Shown: one piece after another, positions 4,857 to 60,234 of the stretch
How the letters are laid out: each line of letters starts with the position of its first letter
Numbering within the stretch: position 1 is the first letter of the stretch
Virus record (IMG/VR): IMGVR_UViG_2778261035_000005
Length of the DNA stretch: 64,000 nucleotides
Source: a virus
Taxonomy: Duplodnaviria; Heunggongvirae; Uroviricota; Caudoviricetes
Direction: 5' to 3' (one strand)
Program-made: the position numbers and the translations under genes
Notes under the pieces: generated by a model
What the model was told of the DNA's origin: nothing
Database searches by the model: none
The model's input: only the letters and a program-made list of their open reading frames with translations

Positions 4857-4918
4857 ATTGTAAGTACATACTTACGATCATAGAATAGAAAAATAACCAA
4901 TACACTACGGAGAGTGAA

Positions 4919-17705: not shown

Positions 17706-19280
17706 ATGGAATTGAACGACAAACAAATTAAGGATCTGGTGGCGCGACGCCACCCGGAATACGAAAAGAAAAAAGAACATTGGGACTTCCTCGCCAGCAC
17801 TTACGCTGGCGGGCGTGGTTGGTTTACAGACAATATCTTTCGTTACTTTAAAGAGGGAGATCAGGAGTTTAAGGAGCGAGTTGAACGTGCTTATCGCTTC
17901 AACCATACTCGTGAGGTGGTAAACCTCATCAACAAATATCTCTTTAAAGAAGACATTCATAGAAATATCGAAGAGGCACCAGAGCAGATCCGCATTTTCT
18001 GGAAACGTGCGACTCGCCAGAATGCCTCTATTGACTCATTTATGGCCGCTATTGATTTGCAGTCGTCTATTTACGGTCGCATATGGGTTGTTGTCGATAG
18101 CACGATGAGTGGTGATGTTGAGTCAGTAGCTGACGAGAAAAAGAAAGATGCTCGCGCCTACGCCTACTGGATTTCACCTCAGCAAATGCTGGATGTGGCA
18201 TGGGACGACGACGGGAATATGTTGTGGGCGTTAATTGTGGAAGTCGCTCGTGATGACGCAGATCCTTTTACTTCTACAGGTCAGGAATACCAACGTTATC
18301 GTCTGTGGACACAAAACGAGTGGTATCTGTTCCGTGAGGAAGTGAAGAAGGGCGCTGGTGGAGCAGGTCGCCGTCAGGCAAAAGTTATTTTAGAGGATAG
18401 CGGTGAGCATAATCTCGGCGTAGTTCCTGTGTTTCCTGTTGATTGTATTGGAGAAAGTGAATCACCGTATTTCAGCCCATCGTTGATCGATGATATCGCT
18501 TATCTTGATCGTGCGGTTGCAAACTATCTGTCAAACCTTGATGCCATTATTCAGGATCAGACATTTAGCCAGTTGGCTATACCGGTACAGTCGCTTTTAC
18601 CTGGTGATGAAAACCACACTAAAGTGCTTGAAATGGGCACAAAGCGAGTCTTCACCTACGATTCTGAAGGTGGAAACCAGCCGTTTTATCTGTCACCAGA
18701 CCCGAAACAAGCTCAGATGATCATCACTACGATTAAGACGGTGATTAACGAAATCTACCATTCAGTTGGTGTAGCTGGTGAGCGAACGAAGCAGGACAAC
18801 GCACAGGGAATCGATAATTCATCTGGTGCCGCAAAAATGTATGACTTCCAGCGTGTAAATAGCTTGCTTGTCACAAAAGCAGAGCGTCTGGAAAGGGCTG
18901 AACGCCAAATCATGCTACTGGTTGCGAAATGGATGGGGGTAGATCTGGACGAAGACCACTCTTTAATTGCGTATCCAGAAAGTTTCGATATTCGTGGCCT
19001 TACTGATGAATTTTCTGTTGCCGAGAAACTGTCATTACTTCAGGCACCGGACTCTGTACGTCGTCACCAGATGGAAATGCTTATTGAGAAGATTTTCCCG
19101 AACATTACTGAGGCGATGAAAAAGGAATTTGATAAAGATCTCTTGAATTTTCCTCCAAAAAATGATCTAAATACCCTTGAAAATAAGTCAGTACTTACTT
19201 ATGATCGTGGTACAGCCCAAGAAAGCGGGCAAGATCAACCCCGAGGGAATGGGGACTCATCTACTCAAGAGAACGAGTGA
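17706..19280 (+). CDS. portal protein
   Basis: 524-aa ORF directly after TerL; size and order. Confidence 0.7.
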   Translation: MELNDKQIKDLVARRHPEYEKKKEHWDFLASTYAGGRGWFTDNIFRYFKEGDQEFKERVERAYRFNHTREVVNLINKYLFKEDIHRNIEEAPEQIRIFWKRATRQNASIDSFMAAIDLQSSIYGRIWVVVDSTMSGDVESVADEKKKDARAYAYWISPQQMLDVAWDDDGNMLWALIVEVARDDADPFTSTGQEYQRYRLWTQNEWYLFREEVKKGAGGAGRRQAKVILEDSGEHNLGVVPVFPVDCIGESESPYFSPSLIDDIAYLDRAVANYLSNLDAIIQDQTFSQLAIPVQSLLPGDENHTKVLEMGTKRVFTYDSEGGNQPFYLSPDPKQAQMIITTIKTVINEIYHSVGVAGERTKQDNAQGIDNSSGAAKMYDFQRVNSLLVTKAERLERAERQIMLLVAKWMGVDLDEDHSLIAYPESFDIRGLTDEFSVAEKLSLLQAPDSVRRHQMEMLIEKIFPNITEAMKKEFDKDLLNFPPKNDLNTLENKSVLTYDRGTAQESGQDQPRGNGDSSTQENE

Positions 19281-24677: not shown

Positions 24678-24693
24678 GTAAGTATATACTTAC
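24678..24693. promoter_or_regulatory. perfect palindrome GTAAGTATATACTTAC
   Basis: Member of TAAGTA motif family, upstream of major tail gene. Confidence 0.45.
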
Positions 24694-31152: not shown

Positions 31153-31234
31153 GCATCTGGATAAGTAAGTACTAATTTACTATCATTGTGGCGCTGACAG
31201 GATGTTAGCGCCTACTTATTTCAAGGATGAAACA

Positions 31235-38049: not shown

Positions 38050-38142
38050 TAGTAGAAAAAAATATTTACATCGGTAAAAATAAGTAGGTACTTACTTTAT
38101 GGTGGGCAAGGATAGCCCACCAAATCAAGGAGCATATTCAAC

Positions 38143-42290: not shown

Positions 42291-42310
42291 GATAGGTAAG
42301 TATATACCTA
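42291..42310. promoter_or_regulatory. palindrome ATAGGTAAGTATATACCTAT
   Basis: TAAGTA-family motif upstream of lysis cassette. Confidence 0.45.
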
Positions 42311-42373
42311 TAATTGAAAGGAGAAGTGTGATATAAATCCGCCATCCCGATTTGACTTTTCATGGAGGAAAAC

Positions 42374-47252: not shown

Positions 47253-47358
47253 TTTTAAAAGACACCCACCAGAACAACTCCCTTCCGTTTCCACTTCCAA
47301 AAACTGCCACCAGTCGCTATCATCCGCTCATTGTGATAAGTAAGTAACTACCTACCAG

Positions 47359-52539: not shown

Positions 52540-52664
52540 TGGTGAATGCCGGGCAGACTATAAGCCCGGCATCTTCGTATAGGGAACTATTGCGCCTAAA
52601 ATGATAAGTAGATACATACTTAGTTTTTTGTAAGAATACTTTCATCTGTTAGCTAGGAGTTGGT

Positions 52665-55474: not shown

Positions 55475-55673
55475 ACGGGAGAAGGAAACACTTTATGAAA
55501 TCAGTAAGTGGCCGGAGTTCCCTGAGTACTGGAAGCCTAAAACGCGGGCTAAGTTAGAGCGGTTAGGGTTGGTTGCAAACGTTTCTGAAACGAGGGGGTC
55601 GGCCAACTACCAGTTAACTGATAAAGGGAAAGTATTGCTACAGCAATTAGTAGAATCAGGAGCGTTAAAATGA
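55458..55673 (+). CDS. small protein (71 aa)
   Basis: Good RBS aaggag before ATG 55458. Confidence 0.5.
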   Translation: MIVLSKREKETLYEISKWPEFPEYWKPKTRAKLERLGLVANVSETRGSANYQLTDKGKVLLQQLVESGALK

Positions 55674-55822
55674 TTCCATACATCTCATTAGCTTTTATGG
55701 GTGGCTTTCTTATCGGCTTCGGCATCTGTCGTGATTTAATTAAGCAGGAACTTAAAACCAAAACACTGTGCATCGGAAAGCGTGTGTATCGGGTAGTTCA
55801 TGAAACAAAGGTTAGAAAATGA
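55670..55822 (+). CDS. small single-TM protein (50 aa)
   Basis: MIPYISLAFMGGFLIGFGIC...; begins with the 13-bp repeat AATGATTCCATAC. Confidence 0.4.
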   Translation: MIPYISLAFMGGFLIGFGICRDLIKQELKTKTLCIGKRVYRVVHETKVRK

Positions 55823-56109
55823 GCAATTTAACTTCTTGGGACTGGTGGTTGGCCACCTATTTCTTAGCGGCCGGAGTCGCATTCGCCTTTTACGTAGGTC
55901 AGTTAGTCGTAAAACTGTTGCTGATTAAATTTGCTAGTCATAAACGTATCGATGATGGTCTGTGGCGTCTTGGCACCCTGGTGGAAACTCGCTACGGGCA
56001 ACTTAAGGAGAACGAAACCATTACTATCCAAGCGAAACGATTCACTGCCACCATCACAAGAACACCTAGTCGTAGAGTGGCCTTGATCAAAAAAGTCGCA
56101 ACCGAATAA
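55819..56109 (+). CDS. membrane protein (96 aa)
   Basis: ATGA overlap with previous ORF; N-terminal TM helix. Confidence 0.5.
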   Translation: MSNLTSWDWWLATYFLAAGVAFAFYVGQLVVKLLLIKFASHKRIDDGLWRLGTLVETRYGQLKENETITIQAKRFTATITRTPSRRVALIKKVATE

Positions 56110-56115
56110 AAACAC

Positions 56116-56140
56116 AATGATAAGTATTTACTTACTTATC
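56116..56140. promoter_or_regulatory. palindrome GATAAGTA-N6-TACTTATC
   Basis: gataagtatttacttacttatc. Confidence 0.45.
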
Positions 56141-56682
56141 TTTTATGTATAAGATGACTTTGTTTTCGTTGAGACGCGACTGTTTGAACTTAAATACAAG
56201 TGCAAACGAAGAAGTCTATCTGGCAGTAGCCTAATAAGCCAAACACCAGCGAGGTCAGTTTCCAGCCTCGTTACCGAAATGGGACACACTGAGCGAGTGT
56301 GATTGCAGAACGCAGGAGGGAACATGAATGTTCCCTCCGATGAAGTAACAGAATGGGCGGTCAGTATATTTTCAACTCATATACGACTCCCGGATTCTTA
56401 TCCAATGACCGCCCATCCTGTTACGTCATTTTGTTCAATTATGTCGTTTATACTGGGTTAAAAAGCGGCGACGTAGCCCGGCTGGTATGGTTAGCCAGCA
56501 CACAACGTTGAGGCCATTACATTTTTATCAATTCTAAGGTTCTATTCACAGAGATACCGGCGAGCGTTGATATGTAACATGTTGGGCAAACATTCAATCG
56601 GAGTAGTGGCCTCAACGTTGTGAAGACAGGATAGTTGTGTAGGTTTAACCACTGTTGCCATTGGTGCCTGTTTTCACAACAA

Positions 56683-56772
56683 ATGATTCCATACATCACA
56701 TTGTATAAATTACAAAGTAAGTGCAGTCCTCAGAAACATCATCTACTTAAAGATTTTGCCTTCTACTATTGA
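56683..56772 (+). pseudogene. truncated duplicate of the 5' end of the 55670 small-ORF
   Basis: AATGATTCCATAC repeated; frame closes after 29 codons. Confidence 0.3.
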
Positions 56773-56888
56773 GCGAAGTCGAAAGCGTCTGGCACTAACG
56801 AAAAGTGCAAGTAGCGGTGCGTTTCCTGGCAGAAACTAAACCGTCGCGATTGGCACTGTTGAGTAATAAATACTGGCAGTGCCGAATT

Positions 56889-56963
56889 GATGGTGTAGCT
56901 CAGCGGTAGAGCAGTTGGCTGTTAACCAACTGGTCGGTGGTTCGAATCCACCCACCATCGCCA
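56889..56963 (+). tRNA. tRNA-Asn (anticodon GTT)
   Basis: Cloverleaf read by hand: acceptor gatggtg/caccatc, anticodon loop ctGTTaa, T-loop ggtggttcgaatccacc, 3' CCA. Confidence 0.85.
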
Positions 56964-56965
56964 AT

Positions 56966-57041
56966 GCCGGTTTAGCTCAGTTGGTAGAGCACCTGCCTTG
57001 TAAGCAGGATGTCAGCGGTTCGAATCCGTTAACCGGCACCA
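56966..57041 (+). tRNA. tRNA-Thr (anticodon TGT)
   Basis: acceptor gccggtt/aaccggc, anticodon stem cctgc/gcagg, loop ctTGTaa, T-loop ttcgaat, 3' CCA. Confidence 0.85.
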
Positions 57042-57254
57042 ACACAACAGGAAAGAGCATTGAGAACCGCCGAGACTGCCCTGTTTGAAGCGTAAGTCCG
57101 TGCAAACGTCATACAGTGCTCTTTTCGTTGTGGTGAATGCGGCTAAGCGCACGCGGGGAAATGGTTATATTGATCCTTTGTGATGACTATTGGCTCCGTC
57201 CACGGTGGATAACCAGCCAAAGGACACCGGGAAGCACCCGGCACCACAACAATT

Positions 57255-57341
57255 GGAGAGTAGGGAGCATGGTGCTCAAGCGGTCTTGAAAACCGTCCCA
57301 TTGCGCAAGCGATGATGGTTCGATTCCATTACTCTCCGCCA
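57255..57341 (+). tRNA. tRNA-Ser-like (anticodon TGA, long variable arm), D-arm atypical
   Basis: acceptor ggagagt/actctcc, anticodon loop ctTGAaa, variable-arm hairpin cattgc-gcaa-gcgatg, T-loop ggttcgattcc, 3' CCA. Confidence 0.6.
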
Positions 57342-57496
57342 GACACAGCGTTGAGCGGTTTGGCCTTTTAATCACCCAGATTAAGACTCCGCTAACATAA
57401 ACCAGACCGCTCAACGCTGTGATAGACAATTACGGCAGACGTTCTTAACCATAGCTTGCTAACATCCTAGCAACACTTTTTTTCAGCGCAAAATTC

Positions 57497-57521
57497 AAAG
57501 GGGCTTCGGCCCCTTTTTGGC
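57497..57521. terminator. bidirectional rho-independent terminator
   Basis: aaaggggcttcggcccctttttgg. Confidence 0.75.
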
Positions 57522-57525
57522 TGGG

Positions 57526-58806
57526 TTAATTAAAACCGAATGAATCAAGTTCTGCTTTTAATTTATCGACCATTTTTTCAACTTCAACCACAATTTCGCC
57601 AATCACCTTTTCTTTGTGTTGATTAGAGCTAAGTTCAAAATAGGCGTTATATAACGCATAACGAGACAGAAAATTTCTAATCTCATTAGCGGGTCTAATG
57701 GTGTAGCCATCGGTTAACACGATATCGGTCTGTCTAGAGTGCTTCTCGTTGAGTTTTATTAGCCGCTTTATCTGTTTTTCATCCTTGAGCACTATCACTT
57801 TGTTAGCTGCAATTTCAAGCTCCCAGCCGACAAAATAACGCAGCGTAGAATTTAATTTAGCCACTTCCTCGGCTGCAATTTCCATTTTCAGCTCAATGTA
57901 GTTTCGCATATGCATAGGTAGGTCATTAAATCTTTGCAGCAAATGTTGTCGGCAGGGGTTGTTGTAAGACCAAAGAACTGCAAACGTAAGCCTATGATAA
58001 CAGCTTATCGCATTGGTATTACAGGCCGAATCACCAACAATCATGCGATCAACATAAAACTCTACGTCTTTTTGGTATTCTTTATTGAATATATCAGCGG
58101 CATAGGTGTCCAGGTAATGAACTTTAGATATTGCATCTTCAAAGAAAAGTTCATTTTCGAAGAAGTTGTATTTGTTCAGGAGACGATAAAGTTTCTTTGC
58201 GTCGTAGGTTTTGCTATTGTCGACATTAAGACCAAAAATAGCAATCAGCAGACTTACTTTTGGACTAATGCTGTTGCGCAGTTGTTCTATGTAAGATCTC
58301 TTTTCACTATCCGCAGATGACGGCAGATAGAAGTCTTTATCTACATAATTTAGAATTAAAATAATGTGGTTAACATACTTAATATAAACAGGGTTTTTTG
58401 TTGCATAGTAATAAACGCCCTTGACGACTTTTATATTCAATTTCAAATTGTACTGACTATCATCCAGTAAGGTTTTGTTAACATCCTCAAGTAATTTATT
58501 ATGCTGTTCAAGTAATATGCCGTACCATTCCTTAAAAGAAGATTTTTTCATTTCAAGAAGCGAAGCCGCCGTCAGCCTGGTCGCTCTCATTGCCGCCTTT
58601 GCACTATGCCTTGCCTCATAAGCGGCCCATGCTGTGGCTAAAAAGGCAAGTGAAGTAGCAAGCGTACCTATAACCTCTACGTTTTCCTTGACGGTATCCC
58701 AGAAAATAATCATCACTGTCCCAAGTATGAGGATTAACAAAACAGGCATTTTATCAGTGTCTTTGGTTAATTTTGAAACTGAATGATACCTAATCGACCA
58801 TACCAT
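57526..58806 (-). CDS. AT-rich gene: membrane-anchored protein (426 aa) of unknown function
   Basis: Two N-terminal TM helices then ~330-aa soluble domain; no motif recognised; composition visibly AT-rich. Confidence 0.6.
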   Translation of the reverse strand: MVWSIRYHSVSKLTKDTDKMPVLLILILGTVMIIFWDTVKENVEVIGTLATSLAFLATAWAAYEARHSAKAAMRATRLTAASLLEMKKSSFKEWYGILLEQHNKLLEDVNKTLLDDSQYNLKLNIKVVKGVYYYATKNPVYIKYVNHIILILNYVDKDFYLPSSADSEKRSYIEQLRNSISPKVSLLIAIFGLNVDNSKTYDAKKLYRLLNKYNFFENELFFEDAISKVHYLDTYAADIFNKEYQKDVEFYVDRMIVGDSACNTNAISCYHRLTFAVLWSYNNPCRQHLLQRFNDLPMHMRNYIELKMEIAAEEVAKLNSTLRYFVGWELEIAANKVIVLKDEKQIKRLIKLNEKHSRQTDIVLTDGYTIRPANEIRNFLSRYALYNAYFELSSNQHKEKVIGEIVVEVEKMVDKLKAELDSFGFN

Positions 58807-60201: not shown

Positions 60202-60234
60202 AATGATTCCATACCTACTATGTATGGAATCATT
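60202..60234. repeat. inverted repeat AATGATTCCATA-N9-TATGGAATCATT upstream of integrase (candidate recombination site)
   Basis: 12-bp perfect arms; left arm is third copy of AATGATTCCATAC (also at 55669 and 56682). Confidence 0.5.

Follow-up and report, generated by a model that had tools for sequence, protein, structure and literature searches.

Long conserved hairpins and a tmRNA-like module in a probable tRNA-bearing RNA operon of an SSU5-like phage-plasmid

Which RNAs, apart from transfer RNAs (tRNAs), are specified by a phage tRNA cluster whose spacers are occupied by long inverted repeats? This question is raised by positions 56120-57520 of the virus record IMGVR_UViG_2778261035_000005 (IMG/VR; Caudoviricetes), a stretch of 64,000 nucleotides that is called the window throughout. 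A preliminary description of the cluster, made from the sequence alone, listed tRNA-Asn, tRNA-Thr and a Ser-like tRNA together with several inverted repeats that could be processing signals, decayed tRNAs or small RNAs. On balance, the comparisons presented here favour the view that 56120-57520 is a single non-coding RNA operon on the plus strand and that the inverted repeats are RNA helices within it. From 5' to 3' the parts of this unit are a promoter with an operator-like palindrome, a module resembling transfer-messenger RNA (tmRNA) that is referred to as M0, hairpins A, B, C and D, tRNA-Asn, tRNA-Thr, hairpin E, an STnc100-like module, tRNA-Ser(UGA), hairpin F and the terminators. The preliminary description missed that the hairpins form one family shared with P1-like and lambdoid phages, and that the whole looks like a single promoter-to-terminator unit.

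The non-coding interval

The region 56120-57520 is matched best by Escherichia phages CMS-2020a and Cyrano (97-98%) and at lower identity by Klebsiella phage-plasmids and Salmonella phage SSU5, and its tRNA part also matches P1, P7, D6 and SJ46. Matches occur in 1311 plasmid records, mostly non-mobilizable, and NZ_AP022089.1 is 99.9% identical to the window. Judging from these closest phage and plasmid matches, the window is therefore an SSU5-like phage-plasmid of E. coli. Loci were fetched for comparison from 13 SSU5-like elements (from Escherichia, Shigella, E. marmotae, Klebsiella, Enterobacter and Citrobacter, with Salmonella Typhi pHCM2 and Yersinia pestis pMT1) and from 5 P1-like elements.

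The unit occupies a gap of approximately 1.4 kb without a credible open reading frame (ORF). The gap is bounded by a small plus-strand ORF that ends at 56109 and by the minus-strand gene 57526-58806; genes for primase and ligase lie just upstream. PGAP and PLSDB listings contain no coding sequence between these two neighbours. A protein-coding role for the gap was rejected: its ORFs are short and overlapping, insertions and deletions in the hairpin loops among relatives have lengths that are not multiples of three, and careful annotations place no coding sequence there. A small ORF from the ATG at 56683, which in the window runs as far as a stop at 56772, does not represent a conserved protein, because the corresponding Klebsiella and Enterobacter frames stop after 5-6 codons.

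Long hairpins

The evidence that carries the RNA operon comes largely from the following helices:

56315-56338, plus strand: hairpin A, 11-nucleotide arms (56315-56325 / 56328-56338), 100% complementary, 2-nucleotide loop
56340-56429, plus strand: hairpin B, 24-nucleotide arms (56340-56363 / 56406-56429), 92% complementary, variable interior
56439-56448 / 56467-56476 and 56481-56485 / 56495-56499, plus strand: two small conserved hairpins from the RNAalifold consensus
56501-56622, plus strand: hairpin C, 20-nucleotide arms (56501-56520 / 56603-56622), 95% complementary, basal CACAACGTTGAG
56617-56680, plus strand: hairpin D, 14-nucleotide arms (56617-56630 / 56667-56680), 93% complementary
57043-57132, plus strand: hairpin E, arms 57043-57062 / 57114-57132, CACAACAGGAAAGAGCA... 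/ ...TGCTCTTTTCGTTGTG
57344-57421, plus strand: hairpin F, 20-nucleotide arms (57344-57363 / 57402-57421), 95% complementary, invariant loop motif AAGACTCCGC

Five of the six long repeats had been seen before and were recovered with altered limits. The perfect 10-base-pair (bp) hairpin placed at 56316-56339 is in fact the 11-nucleotide hairpin A; the 11-bp repeat around 56347-56432 is longer, being hairpin B with its 24-nucleotide arms; the 16-17-bp pair at 56501-56627 is hairpin C, which ends at 56622; the long hairpin at about 57050-57135 is hairpin E; and the 16-bp repeat at 57346-57422 is hairpin F. Hairpin D is a sixth repeat that was missing from the earlier list. The core CGTTGAG, said to be common to the last two repeats, is indeed shared, but it is longer than was claimed: CACA[A/G]CGTTGAG occurs in 4 copies in the window against 0.35 expected by chance.

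Folding of 56110-56890 gives -261.6 kcal/mol with z = -7.55 and folding of 57039-57530 gives z = -6.46, no shuffle being as good in either case; such shuffle statistics cannot be read as probabilities, and the hairpin alignments hold 10-12 related sequences. In these alignments hairpins A and B together are 95% paired compared with 27-48% in slid controls, and hairpin F is 98% paired compared with 29-52%. Hairpin A alone is 96.9% paired, with compensatory changes at 4 of its 11 pairs and a loop that ranges from 2 to 16 nucleotides among 12 relatives. The arms of hairpin B, which resemble the first long hairpin after M0 in P1, are 93.4% paired; 18 of the 24 pairs never vary, and C-to-U changes at columns 80/139, 82/137, 87/132 and 88/131 give rise to G·U pairs, which exist only on the plus strand. 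The small hairpin at 56439-56476 contains three U·G pairs that are invariant, and that at 56481-56499 has a conserved stem and a variable loop. In hairpin C, columns 24/127, 25/126 and 31/120 hold compensatory pairs, and U·G is seen at 26/125 and 29/122. Four pairs of hairpin D show double-sided changes, AAGACAGG/CCTGTTTTC of the window being replaced by GGTCACGG/CCGTGGCC in Klebsiella. Homologues of hairpin E, which stand directly after a tRNA or M0 in Klebsiella plasmids, Citrobacter, P1, ZX4 and HK620, also differ by compensatory changes (GAGCA/TGCTC versus GGGTA/TGCCC). Hairpin F lies 3' of the last tRNA in all 10 of the SSU5-like loci compared and carries the invariant loop motif AAGACUCCGC; it has two compensatory pairs (G-C to A-U and U-A to C-G) and one conserved U·G, and 15 of its 20 pairs never vary.

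At many positions of the hairpins G-C is exchanged for G·U in some sequences, or G·U is the only pair seen, and at these the minus strand would hold A·C mismatches. As G·U is thus accepted only when the plus strand folds, the folded strand is that of the tRNAs. On this comparative evidence the compensatory changes and plus-strand G·U pairs mark the hairpins as RNA helices. The hairpins are kept in Escherichia, Klebsiella, Enterobacter and Citrobacter, in Salmonella pHCM2 and in Yersinia pMT1.

By sequence similarity hairpins B, C, E and F belong to one family, in which the arms are alike and the basal stem is CACAAC...GUUGUG; the basal CACAACGTTGAG of hairpin C also closes hairpin F and one hairpin of P1. 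Members of the family stand directly after tRNAs in Klebsiella and Citrobacter plasmids and, with compensatory differences, are found in the P1 leader, in the 'plp/upl' region of P1, in ZX4 and in HK620. In the unit itself they lie directly against the CCA ends of tRNAs and against the limits of other modules. They have the near-perfect double strand of about two turns (20 bp or more) that characterises substrates of ribonuclease III (RNase III), with 22 of 24 positions paired in B and 19 of 20 in both C and F; in hairpin E a basal helix of 13 bp is followed by additional pairs. Neighbouring helices overlap in the six bases GUUGUG, hairpin D sharing them with the 3' arm of hairpin C and the closing helix of the STnc100-like module with hairpin E; the members of each pair are therefore mutually exclusive over 6 bp.

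tRNA genes and the STnc100-like module

56889-56963, plus strand: tRNA-Asn(GTT), called by ARAGORN; 75.5 bits with the Rfam tRNA model
56966-57041, plus strand: tRNA-Thr(TGT), called by ARAGORN; 76.5 bits with the Rfam tRNA model
57127-57254, plus strand: STnc100-like structured RNA module, closed by GUUGUGGUG / CACCACAAC
57255-57341, plus strand: tRNA-Ser(TGA), called by ARAGORN

The first two tRNA genes hold as originally described, the Rfam tRNA model agreeing with ARAGORN at its gathering threshold, and tRNA-Thr is 96-97% identical to the tRNA-Thr of P1 and P7. The Ser-like gene had been described as having an atypical D-arm. ARAGORN accepts it, and its D-arm is indeed compact (a 4-bp stem and a 5-nucleotide loop, with A at position 8). 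It also has a cloverleaf with a 7-bp acceptor stem, the 7-nucleotide anticodon loop CUUGAAA, a long 6-bp variable arm with a GCAA loop, a TTCGA-type T-loop, G73 and an encoded CCA, and in these respects resembles an elongator tRNA-Ser. The Rfam tRNA model does not report it at the gathering threshold, and its best clan match is the tRNA-Sec model. A tRNA-Sec (RF01852) was nevertheless rejected, as the anticodon is UGA and not UCA, the acceptor and T stems total 12 bp (7/5 or 8/4) and not 13, the D stem has 4 bp and not 6, and 44.6 bits does not reach the threshold of 47. Klebsiella versions have compensatory pairs in the acceptor and D stems, and FelixO1-like phages carry a tRNA of the same architecture with many compensatory changes in further stems; a pseudogene was rejected on the ground that the fold is kept by such pairs across the Escherichia, Klebsiella and FelixO1-like versions. 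P7 and D6 have the gene as well, and according to their annotators its isotype was not called by tRNAscan-SE. Taken together, the comparisons indicate that it is a genuine, conserved tRNA-Ser(UGA) with a compact D-arm.

Four P1-like contigs (L027, L031, L059 and L086) carry a tRNA-Arg(UCU) at approximately +460 nucleotides after M0, with the acceptor and T arms usual for the tRNA-Asn. This looks like a swap of the anticodon arm within one tRNA scaffold.

The suggestion that the spacers contain small RNAs is supported. The spacer at 57042-57254 matches the STnc100 family (Rfam RF02076) over the full model (1-206) at 57109-57277, with 44.1 bits and E = 1.2e-7, and the spacer upstream of the tRNAs opens with the conserved tmRNA-like RNA described below. 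Since 44.1 bits falls short of the gathering score of 47, the module is filed as STnc100-like and not as a member of the family. Corresponding modules score 33-43 bits in P1-like phages and 35 bits in ST64B, and copies in ZX4 and HK620 were recognised only by eye. The closing helix covaries, with U-A in the window and C-G in P1. At E<=10 the only Rfam matches in the region were tRNAs and tRNA-Sec-like, STnc100-like and weak tmRNA matches; none was obtained for DicF, C4, GOLLD or ROOL, and Y-RNA-like matches fell only on tRNA arms.

The tmRNA-like module M0

The most unusual element lies just upstream of 56300-57430, the range to which the preliminary description was confined:

56162-56314, plus strand: tmRNA-like coding module M0 without a tRNA-like domain (from its tag frame, helices and tmRNA-family matches)
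56202-56231, plus strand: M0 tag frame ANEEVYLAVA, stop codons at 56232-56237
56220-56223 / 56246-56249, plus strand: helix enclosing the stop codons
56250-56254 / 56266-56270 and 56260-56263 / 56281-56284, plus strand: pseudoknot 1
56285-56289 / 56297-56301 and approximately 56292-56295 / 56311-56314, plus strand: pseudoknot 2

The frame at 56202-56237 reads GCA AAC GAA GAA GUC UAU CUG GCA GUA GCC UAA UAA, that is ANEEVYLAVA followed by two stops. The tag of E. coli tmRNA is ANDENYALAA. When the leader of the unit was used in a distant search, 317 phage records were matched, and only through its first ~100-145 nucleotides. The module has four settings: the tRNA cluster of virulent FelixO1-like phages, the ban leader of P1, an intergenic stretch of Klebsiella siphophage ZX4 and, between pR'/qut and tQ, the late leader of HK620. 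Viral contigs and the fetched loci were searched with a pattern in which the 5' end of the module and TGCAAACGA alone are fixed. It gave 143 places, and at 102 of these exactly 10 sense codons are followed by a stop. The 102 tags end in A/V/M-A/V-A (with one ending in -AP) and comprise 19 peptide versions and 47 DNA versions, among them ANDDLMMVAA in P1-like elements, ANDNQYLAVA in Klebsiella, ANEDTYLAVA in pHCM2 and pMT1, ANDNVFLAVA in FelixO1-like phages and ANEEMYLAVA in HK620 and ZX4. Differences in the frame are mainly at third codon positions, so that substitution in the tag frame is of the coding type. Upstream of the frame an in-frame stop with no start codon in between is found in 33 of 45 contexts. 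As a control, the same pattern gave at least 120 chance matches in bacterial genomes; two of the 120 listed had 10 codons, and neither was tag-like.

The helices of M0 are 81% paired overall, compared with 33-50% in controls with slid partners. The four pseudoknot stems are 88.6%, 88.1%, 97.1% and 75.0% paired and show double-sided changes in 12 of 18 pairs; in the second stem of pseudoknot 1 all four pairs covary. The element 5' of the tag frame is less clear, at 69-74% paired. Weak matches to Rfam tmRNA families fall on M0 in four phage lineages (17.3, 15.4, 29.2, 24.9 and 11 bits against thresholds of 47-84, so that the gathering threshold was not reached), and the permuted-tmRNA model aligned AUAAAUGCAAACGA to the resume region. 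When an approximate E. coli ssrA sequence was compared with the leader by BLAST, it matched the first 12 nucleotides of the tag only, which is not significant alone.

No consistent tRNA-like partner of M0 was obtained from ARAGORN, from a regular-expression search for T-arms, from the neighbouring tRNAs or from co-occurrence with the STnc100-like module. With default settings ARAGORN reported no tmRNA in the 102 loci, and with lowered thresholds it recovered the same tags with inconsistent acceptor coordinates. In about a third of the loci the T-arm search detected no canonical T-arm within -1.5 to +2 kb. The conserved 5' end of M0 lies 5-13 nucleotides past a -10 box in three lineages, and a module that begins directly after the -10 box has no room for a 5' acceptor strand. 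No G3·U70 pair was seen by eye in the tRNAs called by ARAGORN near M0. The STnc100-like module is not an obligate partner, both being present at 58 of 102 loci. Enough downstream sequence was available at 92 loci: a tRNA gene lies on the same strand within 1.5 kb at 59, only the STnc100-like module is present at 17 and neither is present at 16, leaving 33 of 92 without a downstream tRNA. A tblastn search with an approximate query found no gene for SmpB in the window.

M0 thus has an mRNA-like domain and pseudoknots, lacks a detectable tRNA-like domain and falls short of the Rfam thresholds. It is tmRNA-like and is not a tmRNA, and it is named tmRNA-like only because a tRNA-like domain was tested for and not found. 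We tentatively entertain the possibility, rather doubtful at present, that M0 is a functional phage template for trans-translation which lacks its own tRNA-like domain, takes a partner in trans and has its tag read on stalled ribosomes. The partner could be a neighbouring phage tRNA-like RNA, the tRNA-shaped STnc100-like module or host tmRNA-SmpB. The phage might then set the degradation tag during infection, or redirect or block host ribosome rescue, and the long hairpins would serve to process the M0 RNA and its partners out of the tRNA operon. Any role in trans of the released RNAs is something that we infer.

Several observations touch on M0. Its invariant 5' end GUUUUCGU (56162-56169) is the exact complement of nucleotides 97-104 of E. 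coli ssrA, ACGAAAAC, which cover tag codons 3-5. This 8-nucleotide complementarity could be chance or the relic of an internal helix, yet would allow pairing with host tmRNA. The loop of hairpin E (57060-57110) repeats the 5' part of M0 (56165-56215), as GAGAC..CUGUUUGAA..GUGCAAACG, with no tag-like frame, and from its sequence looks like a truncated second copy of M0. In phage wV8 (locus L020, 2697-2779) an unannotated tRNA-like RNA lies directly 3' of M0; it has no D-arm, has C1-G72, G3·U70 and A73, and has the anticodon loop CUUCUAA. It was considered as the acceptor piece of a tmRNA and rejected, as it looks like a decayed tRNA-Arg instead; it is probably a decayed copy because other FelixO1-like phages have a normal tRNA-Arg(UCU) at that place. 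Its G3·U70, the pair of alanine identity, is curious all the same.

Putative promoter, operator-like palindrome and terminators

56120-56135, no strand assigned: operator-like palindrome ATAAGTATTTACTTAC, overlapping the -35 box
56127-56155, plus strand: putative sigma-70 promoter, TTTACT (56127-56132), 17-nucleotide spacer, TAAGAT (56150-56155)
56682-56697, plus strand: invariant unpaired motif AATGATTCCATACATC, the same in every SSU5-like locus in which this part of the leader is kept
57456-57473, plus strand: weak terminator hairpin with a T-run at 57477-57483, read from the sequence
57500-57513, plus strand: strong terminator hairpin GGGGC-TTCG-GCCCC with a T-run at 57514-57518, read from the sequence
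4860-4875, 19183-19202, 24678-24693, 31161-31176, 38080-38095, 42296-42311, 47340-47355, 52604-52619 and 56120-56135: sites of the type RTAAGTAnnTACTTAY

Transcription of the unit probably starts near 56162. The hexamers of the putative promoter are conserved among the Escherichia, Klebsiella and Enterobacter relatives and its spacer is variable; in ZX4 and wV8 the homologous RNA begins 5-13 nucleotides past strong promoters of the form TTGACA-17-TAGATT/TATAGT. The palindrome ATAAGTATTTACTTAC that overlaps the -35 box is invariant across the SSU5-like loci. For the 16-bp consensus RTAAGTAnnTACTTAY 0.51 occurrences would be expected in the window by chance, and 12 strand-hits were obtained, at about 9 sites in intergenic, promoter-like contexts; the palindrome is probably a candidate operator of the master repressor of SSU5-like phage-plasmids. 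At the other end both terminator hairpins are conserved in relatives (81.5% paired for the weak and 93.8% for the strong one), and the minus-strand gene at 57526-58806 ends at the terminator region.

The motif AATGATTCCATACATC lies inside an otherwise variable stretch of the leader, and it recurs at 55669-55684 and again, in the form of an inverted pair, at 60202-60234, just upstream of an integrase gene. With its 13-7-13 arrangement the inverted pair of AATGATTCCATAC at 60202-60234 resembles the core site of a tyrosine recombinase in architecture. Of the single copies, both on the plus strand, one (55669-55684) is at the start codon of a conserved 50-amino-acid ORF and the other is in the RNA leader.

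Variation of cassettes among relatives

Module-by-module BLAST shows that the array is modular and varies in a cassette-like way. Some relatives have an extra tRNA-Tyr between tRNA-Asn and tRNA-Thr, Klebsiella elements lack tRNA-Thr, and pHCM2-type elements keep tRNA-Asn only. The 213-nucleotide spacer between tRNA-Thr and tRNA-Ser (57042-57254), which consists of hairpin E and the STnc100-like module, is absent from Cyrano and is replaced by other sequence in some plasmids; the deletion junction in Cyrano is a clean crossover exactly in the repeated CCGGCACCA-CA(A)CAA junction. The annotated ORF CYRAN_40 of Cyrano overlaps tRNA-Thr and tRNA-Ser. In Yersinia pestis pMT1 (locus L013, 2001-2510) the promoter, M0 (tag ANEDTYLAVA) and hairpins A to C are kept. 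The tRNA part has been replaced there by the caf1R/caf1M capsule island, and the plague plasmid therefore carries M0 without any tRNA.

Proposed mechanism and alternative explanations

The account towards which we lean, without holding it firmly, is that of a polycistronic, operator-controlled operon in which the long helices serve in processing and stability and the repeated junctions are points of crossover. Transcription would start near 56162 from the promoter overlapped by the palindrome; as the prophage repressor probably has its operator in this palindrome, lytic growth would be expected to turn the unit on. The resulting precursor would carry M0, hairpins A-D, tRNA-Asn, tRNA-Thr, hairpin E, the STnc100-like RNA, tRNA-Ser(UGA), hairpin F and the two terminators. 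The processing signals considered in the preliminary description are plausible: hairpins B, C, E and F would most likely act as double-stranded processing and stabilising elements, with cleavage of the RNase III type followed by the nucleases of tRNA maturation, so that tRNAs and small RNAs are released. At the DNA level the repeated junctions would be crossover points for gain, loss and exchange of tRNA and small-RNA cassettes among SSU5-like, P1-like and lambdoid phages.

A number of points weigh against this account. The proposed promoter matches 8 of 12 consensus positions, and for that reason a consensus scan found no plus-strand promoter here. The shuffle controls overstate significance because the alignments hold 10-12 related sequences. 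The near-invariant arms of hairpins B (18/24) and F (15/20) say little about pairing; their invariance points to sequence-specific recognition, which simple processing hairpins would not need. Cleavage by RNase III at the hairpins is purely predicted. As M0 has no detectable tRNA-like domain, translation of the proposed tag has no known route. Finally, the presence of the 56682-56697 motif beside an integrase gene as well suggests that at least one site for a protein acting on DNA lies within the 'RNA' region.

The last of these points leads to the main rival of an RNA operon, namely that the inverted repeats act as DNA, either as protein-binding or recombination sites or as single-stranded DNA hairpins (a lytic origin or a primosome assembly site beside the replication genes). 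This is unlikely in our view, and it stays alive because the arms of B and F are near-invariant and because the recombinase-type motif AATGATTCCATAC is found in the leader. It would account for the conservation of the B, C and F arms in sequence and not in pairing alone, for the palindromic nature of CAACGTTG itself, for the mapping of cassette insertions and deletions to the repeated junctions, for the half-site that the 13-7-13 inverted site shares with the leader and for the position of the region just downstream of primase and ligase genes. It does not account so readily for the tolerance of G·U at many positions on the plus strand only, although G·T pairs in single-stranded plus-strand DNA are formally possible and limit this argument. 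Moreover, the hairpins lie between or against co-oriented tRNA genes in a promoter-to-terminator unit, and the same hairpins flank RNA modules in the HK620 late leader and beside M0 in ZX4, where no origin would be expected.

It is improbable that the spacers are decayed tRNA genes or tRNA-like relics without present function, left by turnover of a tRNA array, as the preliminary description had considered. Homologous E-type hairpins in P1 and some metagenomic phage contigs enclose a perfect T-arm-like GAGGGTTCGAATCCCTA, the STnc100-like module ends in a hairpin and GGCACCA like the 3' end of tRNA-Thr, and wV8 has its D-armless tRNA-Arg derivative at the equivalent position. In the spacers of the window, however, no match to a tRNA model was found even at E<=10; the helices are kept by compensatory change across genera from Escherichia to Yersinia, and the invariant loop motifs AAGACTCCGC and CACAGAG are unlike relics.

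The leader of approximately 730 nucleotides could instead be a cis-acting regulatory RNA (an attenuator, antiterminator or thermosensor) that controls only read-through into the tRNAs and gives no separate RNA products. It is always 5' of a tRNA in SSU5-like and P1-like elements, and the mutually exclusive 6-bp helices (C with D, and E with the STnc100-like module) are a hallmark of switches between alternative structures. Little probability is attached to this explanation, as M0 has no downstream tRNA at the 33 loci counted above and is a stand-alone promoter-driven unit in ZX4, pMT1 keeps the leader though its tRNAs are gone, and the tag frame evolves like coding sequence. Three further readings of the hairpins were rejected: integron attC sites, whose resemblance is superficial because the order of the boxes relative to the stem is wrong (GTTGAGC first, GCTCAAC last, where attC sites have R''-L''...L'-R' boxes of the type RYYYAAC...GTTRRRY); miniature inverted-repeat transposable elements, given that the hairpins are at the same positions in all relatives; and a retron msr/msd, raised by the flanking inverted repeats, as no reverse transcriptase lies nearby.

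Significance

Operons of tRNAs with small RNAs (sRNAs) are of an already known kind, as is STnc100. The hairpin family and the widespread tmRNA-like module without a tRNA-like domain appear to be undescribed, because no Rfam family covers them, no RefSeq annotation marks them and no match was found in the literature. RefSeq annotates nothing at the M0 locus in 259 E. coli records, the literature searched contained no mention of six of the M0 tag peptides, and nothing was found there on sRNAs from the corresponding region of pHCM2 or pMT1. M0 is thus unannotated in P1, HK620, pHCM2 and the pMT1 plasmid of Yersinia pestis.

Phage tRNA clusters are usually read as tRNA genes with junk spacers, and the spacers of this cluster are conserved, exchangeable RNA modules. 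They are common to phage-plasmids (SSU5-like and P1-like), lambdoid phages, Klebsiella siphophages and virulent FelixO1-like phages, groups that are medically relevant. A coding-like tag without the tRNA-like half could represent a new route into the ribosome or a phage mimic of tmRNA directed against ribosome rescue. The hairpin family and junction repeats provide a rule for locating such RNA cassettes, and they flag probably spurious ORFs that have been annotated over the modules: plp and upl of P1 and CYRAN_40 of Cyrano may all be of this kind.

Comparison with known systems

The closest relative of the unit is the ban operon of P1, which is controlled by C1 operators. There, homologous tRNA-Asn and tRNA-Thr genes (89-97% identity) stand behind a long non-coding leader that holds the same tmRNA-like module (tag ANDDLMMVAA) and the same hairpins, and the operon has E-type and C/F-type hairpins, an STnc100-like module and an operator-controlled promoter. 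The two differ in that the protein genes tciABC and ban follow in the P1 operon, whereas the SSU5-like unit ends at its terminator with no protein gene. Over these modules the sole annotations of the P1 record are a 'dicF-like region' and the two ORFs plp and upl of the minus strand. In P1 (locus L015, NC_005856) these lie at 1629-2198 on the minus strand, antisense to conserved plus-strand hairpin modules, namely an E-type hairpin that encloses a T-arm-like element and a CAACGTTGAG-type hairpin.

M0 was compared with SsrA, with two-piece (permuted) tmRNAs and with the canonical tmRNAs of some large phages. Like tmRNA (SsrA), it has a frame without a start codon that begins GCA AAC GA-, 10 sense codons of the form AN(D/E)...(L/M)(A/V/M)(A/V)A, one or two stops held in a helix, an A located 4 nucleotides 5' of the first codon and two H-type pseudoknots 3' of the frame. 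Unlike tmRNA, it has no acceptor stem, T-arm or CCA partner and no SmpB gene in its window, and its core is ~150-175 nucleotides compared with ~360 in a standard tmRNA.

STnc100/PasD (RF02076) is a prophage-borne, Hfq-associated sRNA family (bioRxiv 10.64898/2026.05.13.724894; PMC12370729). The module described here is likewise phage-borne and has a multi-branched fold with a closing helix, an internal hairpin (GCGGCUAAGCGC...) and a terminal CCGGG-ARGCA-CCCGG hairpin; it differs in lying between two tRNA genes on a phage-plasmid, neither downstream of stx nor in a lambdoid late region.

The long hairpins recall the RNase III stems of ribosomal RNA operons and of T7 early mRNAs, being near-perfect helices of about 20-24 bp that bracket the RNAs of a polycistronic precursor. 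They differ from those stems in that their arms are conserved in sequence and repeated as a family, and in that cleavage is here predicted. A similar comparison may be made with the tRNA clusters of T4-type phages, from which stable RNAs are co-transcribed, and with E. coli sRNAs derived from tRNA spacers, such as 3'ETS-leuZ; in these, tRNAs and structured RNAs are likewise carried on one precursor. Common to these systems would be that the enzymes of tRNA processing, acting with RNase III or RNase E, release the sRNAs. They have no sequence relationship to the unit considered here, whose spacer RNAs are conserved, mobile and larger than the tRNAs that they accompany.

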